NCBI RefSeq assembly: GCF_003334765.1
Contig: NZ_QOWT01000063.1
DNA: 5,656 nt
Source: Escherichia coli
GTDB lineage: Bacteria; Pseudomonadota; Gammaproteobacteria; Enterobacterales; Enterobacteriaceae
Reading direction: 5' to 3' (one strand)
This document shows positions 126 through 1,289 of the stretch, piece after piece; positions within the stretch are counted from its first letter, which is position 1, and every line of letters starts with the position of its first letter. The notes beneath the pieces are model-generated. The model had not been told where the DNA came from and did no database searches. It saw nothing but the letters and a program-made list of their open reading frames with translations. Position numbers and translations under genes: made by a program.

Positions 126-1289
126 TTATCTGGAATCGATTTGGCTGTTCTGCCTGGTTGCCACCAAATCATGGTACGCCTGCTCAATCATTTCATTCAG
201 CAGTTTTTTTGGGAGGACACCACGACTTCGGGCAATACTTTCAAGCTGTTTGTGGATTTTTCCGGACAGTTTCAGAGGGACGGAACCATCAGCACGTTCA
301 TCACGCCTTTTTTGTTGCTCCCGGGCACTTTTCAGCTCATCAAGAAGAATCGCTTTATGCTGAATCCTGGGGGCCTGGAAGGAGACCTGCGTAAACTTCG
401 CTCTGTTCCGTCTGGGATTACTTTCCAGTAAAAACTGTACCTGTTGCTCATTCCAGCCCTCCCAGTTATCAAACGTGGCGCAAGCAAACCAGTATTTCTG
501 CTCCGGGGTAAGGGGATTCAGCGGGGTTCCCACACACCGGACCTGCATGGCGTTCCATAACCAGTCACACTGTTCACTGTCCCTGCTGTCCACCCACGAA
601 AAGGGGGAGGGGTAATCATTGTTTATGCTGGCCCATTCAGAGAATACTGAGTTGATAATCGTCCTCGTAGCCTCTGGTCCGGATTTCAGCAGGTAACTGG
701 AGCAGAACCATATAATTTCACGGTAGATTTTATCCGGATGCACGGTGCGCATCGGCTTTTCTCTGGGACCGGCAATCTTCGGTTGCGATGGAAACCCCGT
801 GGCAAACCGCAGATGTTCCGGGGGCATTCCTGAACGTTTTTCAGGAATGGGTGTGAGTCCTGCGTTTCTGGTCTTTTCCGCTTGTCCGGTATTGCCTCCG
901 GCCGGAGTGTTGTCGGGAGTATCTTCCGGAGGCGAGGTGTTTTCATTAGTTGGGGGAACAACAGCAGAACTGTCCATCTCCGGAATGGGTTGAGGGGCAT
1001 AATCACTGTGGTAGCCAGGGGAAAGCGTTAAGTCCCGAAGGGTGACATCAGGTTCCGGGCAGTGAGTGCCACCGGGAGTGAACGGGAGTTGTTGCTTTTG
1101 GGAGAAAAATGTATTGTGAATGCGGGTATACAGCTGGAACAGAAAAAAATAAGATGCCCGTGGTTCTTTTTTTAACCACTGTGTATATTCCTCTATGGCA
1201 CCGAGCTGTTGTTTGTGCCGTTTTACAGCATCGATATACGGACAGCTGGTGCAGATATCATCCAGTTCCTTTCCCACAATACACCTCAC
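126..1289 (-). CDS. Hypothetical protein, 383-387 aa; N-terminal globular part, Pro/Thr-rich low-complexity linker, Trp-rich C-terminal domain ending in a ribbon-helix-helix-like motif
   Basis: Longest ORF in the window, with stop TGA at 126..128. The first codon in the track is GTG at 1287..1289. An in-frame GTG at 1275..1277 has the better ribosome-binding site (AGGTGAGGTG, 6-nt spacer), so the true start may be 1277. The C-terminal residues SVPLKLSGKIHKQLESIARSRGVLPKKLLNEMIEQAYHDL fit the strand-helix-helix pattern of Arc/MetJ/CopG DNA-binding domains. A terminator follows at 55..98. The family was not recognised. Confidence 0.6.
   Translation of the reverse strand: MRCIVGKELDDICTSCPYIDAVKRHKQQLGAIEEYTQWLKKEPRASYFFLFQLYTRIHNTFFSQKQQLPFTPGGTHCPEPDVTLRDLTLSPGYHSDYAPQPIPEMDSSAVVPPTNENTSPPEDTPDNTPAGGNTGQAEKTRNAGLTPIPEKRSGMPPEHLRFATGFPSQPKIAGPREKPMRTVHPDKIYREIIWFCSSYLLKSGPEATRTIINSVFSEWASINNDYPSPFSWVDSRDSEQCDWLWNAMQVRCVGTPLNPLTPEQKYWFACATFDNWEGWNEQQVQFLLESNPRRNRAKFTQVSFQAPRIQHKAILLDELKSAREQQKRRDERADGSVPLKLSGKIHKQLESIARSRGVLPKKLLNEMIEQAYHDLVATRQNSQIDSR

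Follow-up and report, generated by a model that had tools for sequence, protein, structure and literature searches.

The window considered here is a stretch of 5,656 nucleotides of Escherichia coli DNA (RefSeq assembly GCF_003334765.1, contig NZ_QOWT01000063.1), to which all coordinates refer unless another locus is named. Its minus strand contains a gene, termed X below, whose product of 383 residues is annotated as a hypothetical protein. X is a backbone gene of genomic islands with a P4-type integrase, the regulator AlpA and an inovirus Gp2-like protein. The last 50 residues of the protein are predicted to form a ribbon-helix-helix (RHH), and X most likely acts as a DNA-binding regulator of the island. 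The coding sequence and the parts of the protein are arranged as follows.

126..1277, minus strand: coding sequence of X, with a GTG start at 1277, a stop codon at 126..128 and a second GTG in the open frame at 1289
1092..1241, minus strand: predicted N-terminal helical hairpin, residues 13-62, motif WLKKEPRAxYFFLF
828..1091, minus strand: Pro/Thr-rich hypervariable insertion, predicted to be disordered, residues 63-150
792..824, minus strand: conserved motif PPEHLRFATGF, residues 152-162, just after the insertion
390..737, minus strand: Trp-rich helical core, residues 181-296, motifs PSPFSWL, QCxWLW and ATFDNWxGW
291..368, minus strand: long basic helix ahead of the RHH, residues 304-329 (HKAILLDELKSAREQQKRRDER; family consensus KAWxQKKxR)
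129..281, minus strand: predicted C-terminal RHH, with strand VPLKL (333-337), helix A (339-352) and helix B (356-380)

Reading frame and distribution of the X gene

The first-pass annotation, made from the letters of the window, had described an open reading frame of 387 codons at 126..1289 with a GTG start, the first methionine at residue 105 and GTG codons at 1289 and 1277. The frame appears in the list of open reading frames exactly so, and both GTG codons and the late methionine are where they were said to be. The RefSeq annotation of the identical sequence takes the shorter version, 126..1277, as the 383-residue hypothetical protein WP_000514100.1. A Shine-Dalgarno-like sequence, AGGTGAGG, lies 5 nt upstream of the GTG at 1277; diverged E. 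coli alleles retain this GTG behind the same AGGTGAGG, and distant homologues from other genera align from this position onward and have an ATG within a few codons of it. The suitable spacing, the retention of the GTG among alleles and the proximity of the homologous ATG codons make 1277 the most likely start as judged by sequence comparison. Residue numbers of the mapped parts and of the predicted structure refer to the 383-residue protein.

Of 5426 complete E. coli genomes, 1964 carry the gene. When 1.84 billion representative sequences were searched with a profile, 144 proteins of the X family were recovered, all of them hypothetical proteins according to their source, from E. coli, Salmonella, Klebsiella, Citrobacter, Cronobacter and Vibrio; a genome scan, which returned six loci, extends the family to Alteromonadaceae, Marinobacter, Kushneria and Serratia. 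The reading frame and the layout of the protein are kept in homologues from several orders of the Gammaproteobacteria, and by this measure of conservation X is a real gene, beyond chance. The whole protein shows zero matches in Pfam, NCBIfam, PHROGs and PADLOC, for the first two even at an E value of 10, and X itself has none in the PDB at that value either. Sequence searches of the PDB, with the whole-family profile and with the C-terminal 57 residues alone, returned nothing useful, and the literature on the neighboring gene names and on RHH proteins with AlpA islands holds no description of the protein. A phage or plasmid gene was considered as an identity for X and rejected, with 0 matches among phage records and 3 among 72,556 plasmid records.

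A predicted C-terminal ribbon-helix-helix

An RHH at the C terminus had been proposed in the first-pass annotation, and this proposal is supported by profile matches, by Pfam assignments among the relatives and by a predicted structure. A profile built from the C termini of 47 family members matches CopG (1b01, 2cpg) with an E value of 0.007, aligned to CopG residues 2-33, followed by ORF56 (0.02), MatP (0.21; PDB entry 4d8j), SvtR/56B (0.31) and MazE7 (0.86). The natural proteins at the head of this match list are all RHH proteins. The alignment also places a basic pair, KK, ahead of the strand, as in CopG. In scans of the individual C termini, 8 of the 47 match RHH_1 at an E value of at most 0.1 (best value, 3.6e-5), 9 of the 47 match RepB-RCR_reg, and 4 of the 47 match MatP_C weakly; RHH_3, NikA-like, HicB and Antitox_RHH appear as further Pfam matches among the family C termini. 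Full-length relatives show weak NCBIfam matches to CopB/RepA and YbfE at the position of the RHH.

The dimeric form was approached with a tandem model, in which two copies of residues 328-383 joined by a (GGS)10 linker were predicted as the first sequence of an alignment of 41 members by AlphaFold. The model shows a strand (6-10), a helix (12-25) and a second helix (29-53), twice, with a predicted local distance difference test score (pLDDT) of 86-94 and a predicted template modeling score (pTM) of 0.64. The only strands assigned by DSSP are the two RHH strands; the fusion forces the copies close together, so that the model is no proof of dimerization. In a Foldseek comparison of the tandem model with the PDB, the top places go to three chains (E, F and G) of the F-plasmid relaxosome (E values of 0.05-0.6, probability up to 0.99), ahead of a permuted single-chain Arc. 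A sequence search identifies these three chains as TraY, a natural tandem RHH protein. The strand (333-337) and the two helices (339-352 and 356-380) are predicted with a pLDDT of >90. At the level of prediction, the assignment of the last 50 residues as an RHH is supported, being borderline for X alone and better for the family.

N-terminal helices, Trp-rich core and Pro/Thr-rich insertion

The prediction of X with AlphaFold2 from an alignment of 102 sequences has a mean pLDDT of 79.9 and a pTM of 0.72, with confident helices at residues 13-62, 181-296, 304-329, 339-352 and 356-382. The N-terminal hairpin is built from helices 13-37 and 39-62 (pLDDT of 82-96) and contains invariant W, K, R and F columns. 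Full-length alignment with homologues of 27-32% identity from Citrobacter koseri, Cronobacter sakazakii and metagenomes shows W38, L39, K41, R44, F48, F49, L50 and L53 as invariant, and the W and R of the motif are conserved in at least 90% of 102 family members. Many relatives of ∼290-320 residues, including proteins from Vibrio, Marinobacter and Kushneria, share the N-terminal W-x-K-x-x-x-R-A, the Trp-rich motifs and the C terminus, and they lack the Pro/Thr stretch. The first-pass annotation had left room for a spurious N-terminal extension; the homologues do not begin at Met180, and their N-terminal 60 residues are conserved in frame. Since it is conserved both in the 27-32% relatives and in those of ∼300 residues, the N terminus, on comparative grounds, is translated.

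The Trp-rich domain named in the same annotation is found as well, with 8 tryptophans in the 115 residues 186-300. It is followed by the basic helix, predicted by AlphaFold, with conservation of at least 90% at its K, A, Q and R columns. Outside the family, the ∼300 residues of X that precede the RHH show 0 matches in Pfam, NCBIfam, PHROGs, PADLOC, the PDB and the AlphaFold database. A single domain, interrupted by the Pro/Thr stretch as a loop, is the probable arrangement of the N-terminal helices and the Trp-rich part: in the short relatives one part passes straight into the other, and the pTM is high although one-third of the chain is predicted to be disordered.

The insertion is delimited by its composition, a pLDDT of 40-58, its divergence among alleles and its absence from the ∼300-residue relatives, where the Pro/Thr stretch is wholly missing. 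The enrichment reported for residues 70-180 is confirmed at 18.9% Pro and 10.8% Thr, with P, T, S, E and N together at 47.7% compared to 21-36% in other parts of the protein. The interpretation of this region as a disordered linker holds in one respect and is qualified in another: disorder is predicted, with a pLDDT of <50 at residues 80-128, but the region resembles an inserted loop more than a tether between independent domains. Directly behind it, the 10-residue block 151-160 has a mean pLDDT of 93 with a short predicted helix at 154-157, and P157, A163 and G165 (numbering of the 387-codon frame) of the adjoining motif are at least 90% conserved.

Among E. coli alleles compared in 100-nt bins, the insertion is the least conserved part of the gene, with 43-67% nucleotide identity and indels, compared to 81-90% in the N-terminal part and 88-98% in the core and C terminus. 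Its nonsynonymous divergence (dN) is 0.42-0.44 and its synonymous divergence (dS) 0.66-0.69, giving a dN/dS ratio of ∼0.6; dS in the flanks is 0.08-0.29, and both measures are severalfold higher in the insertion. With this ratio and the raised dS, dN/dS gives no sign of positive selection in the insertion, and the sequence comparison points to relaxed constraint or old allelic divergence. In the natural variant P0002, most of the Pro/Thr stretch is deleted. The divergence also suggests a mosaic gene with a central segment that is old or mutation prone.

Island setting

The whole window matches E. coli chromosomes with an identity of up to 100%. In strain 13C1065T it lies in an island between sbcB/yeeA and cobU, the position of CP4-44. 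The gene order there begins with a Gp2-family gene, an AlpA-type regulator, a 200-residue hypothetical protein, IS21/IS100 debris and X and continues with a YeeP-type GTPase, dynamin/RdcB/patatin cargo, DUF932, antirestriction, RadC-like, DUF987 and CbeA/CbtA genes. AlpA and a YagK/YfjJ (inovirus Gp2-like) gene are found within 6 kb of X in nearly all of 15 loci. The gene following X differs between two types of loci. Long-type X genes (E. coli, Citrobacter, Cronobacter and Serratia) are followed by a YeeP/YkfA-type GTPase gene, an adjacency kept in 6 of 8 long-type loci, and after short-type X genes (Vibrio, Alteromonadaceae, Kushneria and a metagenome) the next gene, which closes the island, encodes a P4-type integrase and is convergent with X. 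The association with an island, raised in the first-pass annotation as one possibility, holds across loci; X is tied to the AlpA/Gp2-like/integrase module and is a backbone gene of P4-integrase/AlpA/Gp2-like islands.

The neighborhoods read contain no relaxase or MOB domain. No ParA-type gene lies next to X, the neighbor being an MMR_HSR1/YeeP-type GTPase or an integrase gene, and no toxin domain was found next to X, where PADLOC also gives no match. The island CP4-57 of E. coli K-12 has alpA and yfjJ and lacks X. Its gene yfjH, at a comparable position, was considered as a counterpart of X and rejected (BLASTP E value, 0.38; hhalign probability against the family alignment, 0.5%).

A candidate operator motif

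RHH repressors such as CopG, MetJ and Arc usually bind immediately ahead of the gene, at a short palindrome or at repeats spaced by one helical turn. Comparison of the regions upstream of X-family genes revealed a recurrent element of the type CTACGTAG. In the short-type loci, the palindrome is always found 17-61 nt ahead of the ATG. The sequence ACTACGTAGT is perfect (10/10) in Vibrio diazotrophicus (locus L017), at -17 from the ATG, and in Marinobacter (L022), at -61; the variant ACTACTTAGT, with a 9/10 match, lies at -20 in Vibrio sp. (L021), and GTTACGTAGT is found at -25 to -41 in L006, L009 and Kushneria (L023). The long-type loci L002 (Citrobacter), L010 and L024 (Serratia) contain instead CTACG(A/T)A repeats with a spacing of 11 bp, 100-155 nt upstream, and L004 (Cronobacter) contains a weaker variant of them. 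The sites in the long-type loci and in the window are the following.

L002 9846..9900, L004 9846..9900, L010 1612..1633 and L024 ∼5250..5290 (coordinates of those loci): 11-bp-period repeats CTACG(A/T)A-TTTT in A+T-rich DNA
Window 1461..1510, strand not given: candidate operator region, with AAAACGTAGT (1467..1476, an 8/10 match to ACTACGTAGT) beside the direct repeats CTCTGTGTATTTA and CTCACTGTATTTA (1477..1503)

CTACGTA/TACGTAG occurs 7 times in the 4158 bp upstream of X genes compared to 8 times in the remaining 156,530 bp of the same loci, a 33-fold enrichment when position is ignored. Among k-mers, ACTACGTA is the most widely shared 8-mer (6 of 14 loci), and ACGTAGT is a joint leader among the 7-mers in the 14 loci. 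The motif was not found near alpA and yfjJ of K-12 CP4-57, the island lacking X. The candidate operator is thus well founded for the family; for the copy in the window, identified by analogy with the clearer sites of relatives, it is only an extrapolation. Two further observations concern this motif. The 11-bp-period repeats of the long-type loci are iteron-like, and the site they mark could be an origin instead of an operator. A perfect CTACGTAG site is also present elsewhere in the same E. coli island (L001, 8781), near the 3' end of a hypothetical gene.

Leader, hairpins and terminator

Upstream and downstream of X, the window contains the following noncoding features on the minus strand.

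1290..2000, minus strand: conserved noncoding leader that always accompanies the X gene
1932..1905, minus strand: promoter-like site TTGACA-16-TACGAT within the leader, from a sequence scan
1318..1354, minus strand: 9-bp hairpin followed by a T run and enclosing the palindrome GTACAT-C-ATGTAC (1338..1350), from a scan for terminator-like structures (-11.9 kcal/mol, z score of -3.3)
60..97, minus strand: intrinsic terminator directly after the X stop codon, a 10-bp G+C-rich stem (-19.5 kcal/mol, z score of -4.3) followed by UUUUGUCUUUUU

The leader is found in 2091 genomes and the X gene in 2097. Its identity between alleles (79-98% in 100-nt bins) exceeds that of the Pro/Thr region of X (43-67%), and it holds two terminator-like hairpins. 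An 86-residue open reading frame at 1672..1932 is a doubtful cause of this upstream conservation, as it contains a 2-nt insertion in allele L013, and no Rfam family is found in the window at an E value of at most 1. This stretch may act as a long regulatory leader, or it may encode an RNA of its own. The hairpin at 1318..1354 lies 57-77 nt upstream of the X start and is conserved in alleles L011 and L013; it could be a leader terminator or attenuator, or an operator. The terminator at 60..97 ends 17 nt ahead of the ATG (42..40) of the YeeP/YkfA-type GTPase gene. With this strong terminator between the two genes, it is doubtful that X is the first gene of an operon, and a long operon simply headed by X is improbable.

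Function of X and alternative explanations

The reading favored here, with a probability of about 0.5, is that X is a sequence-specific DNA-binding and probably autoregulated regulator of the island backbone that dimerizes through its C-terminal RHH. Dimerization, DNA binding, recognition of the motif by X itself, autoregulation and an effect on other island genes are what we infer from the comparisons above. Two X molecules would pair via their RHH domains, and the resulting two-stranded β-ribbon, together with the preceding basic helix, would read short palindromic or tandem-repeat sites in the control region of the island. The likeliest target would be the promoter or leader of X itself, leading to autorepression. 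The large helical domain made up of the N-terminal and Trp-rich parts may serve in higher-order assembly or make contact with a partner or a signal, and the Pro/Thr stretch may be a dispensable, fast-evolving surface loop of the enterobacterial branch. Of the functions listed in the first-pass annotation, that of a DNA-binding regulator fits best; partition and relaxosome accessory roles find no support in a neighborhood without ParA or relaxase.

Several points weigh against this reading. The RHH call is based on family profiles with borderline E values and on AlphaFold models, and X alone reaches no Pfam match even at an E value of 10. The motif was found post hoc in 14 loci, with k-mer maxima that are only borderline compared to shuffled sequences. 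Its counterpart in the window, AAAACGTAGT, is only an 8/10 match that 62 of 500 shuffles equal and has no significance by itself; this site is 199 nt away from the X start, on the upstream side, and is lost in allele L013. The dN/dS ratio of X between E. coli alleles is fairly high (0.28-0.9), and a strong terminator stands between X and the downstream GTPase gene.

A more ambitious version can be entertained only tentatively and is rather doubtful. Here, X would be the founding member of a family not described before, whose proteins act as master regulators, or bind origins, in the most common integrase/AlpA/Gp2-like island class of the Gammaproteobacteria. They would read a conserved ACTACGTAGT palindrome via the RHH and sense or recruit a partner with a new Trp-rich helical fold. 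The hypervariable Pro/Thr loop of enterobacteria would be a contact surface that phage or host factors, for instance, drive to diversify.

An unlikely alternative, though the best placed of those that depart from the regulator, is an origin-binding accessory of the Gp2/YfjJ-like protein, which is related to the rolling-circle initiator found in filamentous phages. X would bind iteron-like repeats, bend the DNA and aid nicking, replication or transfer of the excised island, in the way that the RHH proteins CopG, TraY and NikA assist plasmid Rep proteins or relaxases. The Gp2-like/YagK_YfjJ gene is divergent from or near X in most loci, the 11-bp-period repeats in A+T-rich DNA (CTACGAATTTTCTACGTATTTA...) are iteron-like, and the downstream genes of the long type (DUF932, antirestriction and RadC) resemble plasmid leading-region genes. 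However, no relaxase, primase or recognized origin is seen in the neighborhood, and nicking by Gp2-like proteins is putative. The TraY chains of the F relaxosome are the best fold matches of the RHH model, but this match only reflects the tandem RHH topology of an artificial fusion. The motif of the short-type loci, a single palindrome 17-61 nt before the start codon, is typical of an operator rather than an origin.

With still lower probability, X might be an architectural or directionality factor of site-specific recombination that binds near the integrase end and modulates integration or excision or represses the integrase gene. Such a factor would suit the six short-type loci, representing five distinct island contexts (Vibrio, Alteromonadaceae, Kushneria and a metagenome), in which X is the immediate convergent neighbor of the P4-type integrase gene, as well as the presence near X, in nearly all loci, of AlpA, known to activate the excision of these islands. 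On the other side, X of E. coli, Citrobacter, Cronobacter and Serratia is not beside an integrase and has the GTPase gene after it, AlpA already fills the directionality role, and X separates the motif from the integrase and the attachment site.

The least probable explanation, a C-terminal strand-helix-helix that serves for dimerization without DNA binding, with X as a scaffold or regulator of a partner protein such as the adjacent YeeP-type GTPase, draws on the lack of a significant RHH match for X alone, on the adjacency of X and the GTPase gene in long-type loci and on ∼300 residues free of a DNA-binding signature but meets with short-type relatives that have no GTPase neighbor altogether, a basic helix and KK before the strand conserved as in DNA-binding RHH proteins and a palindromic motif enriched upstream.

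Comparison with known systems

The predicted regulator has its closest counterparts in the CopG/Arc/MetJ repressors (Pfam RHH_1, PF01402; RepB-RCR_reg, PF10723; ORF56). X shares with them, in its last 50 residues, the predicted strand-helix-helix layout, in which basic residues precede the strand and the two helices are joined by a turn of the G-x-(S/T/P) type. Its candidate target, which is either ACTACGTAGT as a short palindrome or tandem repeats with a period of one helical turn, resembles the MetJ boxes (AGACGTCT) and the CopG operator. Those repressors comprise 45-100 residues with little beyond the RHH, whereas X has ∼330 more residues on the N-terminal side without a detectable relative. 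MatP, NikR and PutA combine, like X, an RHH with a larger helical domain in one chain. In MatP, however, the RHH is central and followed by a coiled coil, and the helical domain of X is not similar; MatP is also a chromosomal housekeeping protein, in contrast to the island protein X.

Accessory and antitoxin RHH proteins show a greater distance. TraY of F-like plasmids is the top fold match of the tandem model, with an E value of only 0.05-0.6, and both TraY and X belong to mobile elements. TraY, however, consists of two RHH repeats and nothing else and is encoded beside oriT and a relaxase gene, while X has one predicted RHH and no relaxase nearby; the relaxase neighbor typical of relaxosome accessory proteins (TraY, NikA and MbeC) is thus missing. 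Partition proteins such as ParG and omega are small, with an N-terminal flexible arm and a ParA-type partner, in contrast to the 383 residues of X, its C-terminal RHH and its lack of such a partner. Type II antitoxins of the RHH class (ParD, RelB, CcdA, MazE7 and FitA) are small, with an N-terminal RHH, and are cotranscribed with a toxin gene that follows immediately, whereas X has a C-terminal RHH and a terminator after its stop codon.

The island belongs to the same class as the tmRNA/tRNA-integrated AlpA-Gp2-RadC islands, namely CP4-57, CP4-44 and CP4-6 of E. coli and elements of Pseudomonas, with a tyrosine integrase, AlpA, an inovirus Gp2-like protein, RadC and variable cargo. In the Pseudomonas islands, the genes for tyrosine integrase, AlpA, Gp2-like protein and RadC are called likely core functions, and none is assigned a function (bioRxiv 10.1101/2024.08.29.610337); X is not among the core genes listed there. 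X stands outside any curated family and is best described as an RHH-type regulator with a large N-terminal domain of unknown fold.

Significance

Islands of the CP4 type are among the most frequent mobile elements of E. coli and its relatives and carry adhesins such as Ag43, toxin-antitoxin pairs, anti-restriction genes and defense genes as cargo. To our knowledge, almost nothing is known about the control of their backbone beyond AlpA and the integrase. X is present in more than one-third of the complete E. coli genomes, yet it has no family assignment in the libraries tested. If X is an island DNA-binding regulator with a recognizable operator, its influence on expression, excision and transfer of the island would become directly testable. 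It would also provide a reusable regulator/operator pair and a named family to replace thousands of annotations as hypothetical protein. Should this reading prove wrong, X would remain a protein with clear limits, a fold that is unknown and a hypervariable insert of an unusual kind.

Further observations in the window

A search of the window for meaningful long repeats found only short ones at chance level. The AlpA-family excisionase/regulator gene is located at 4370..4576 on the minus strand (68 residues in RefSeq; the mechanical reading frame extends to 4777) and matches the excisionase families of PHROGs and, weakly, TIGR01764 and PADLOC PDC-M06B. Directly downstream of it, a frame of 205 residues (3674..4291, minus strand) shows no match in NCBIfam, PHROGs or PADLOC. 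This frame is also found beside AlpA in Citrobacter (58% identity) and Serratia (∼30%), as a second uncharacterized backbone gene of the same module. Remnants of the IS21 family, with fragments of an AAA ATPase and a transposase, occupy ∼2408..2900. All best-matching genomes contain a complete IS100 of ∼1.96 kb near window position 2.85-2.9 kb, which is absent from the window, and the GTPase gene of strain 13C1065T is a frameshifted pseudogene.

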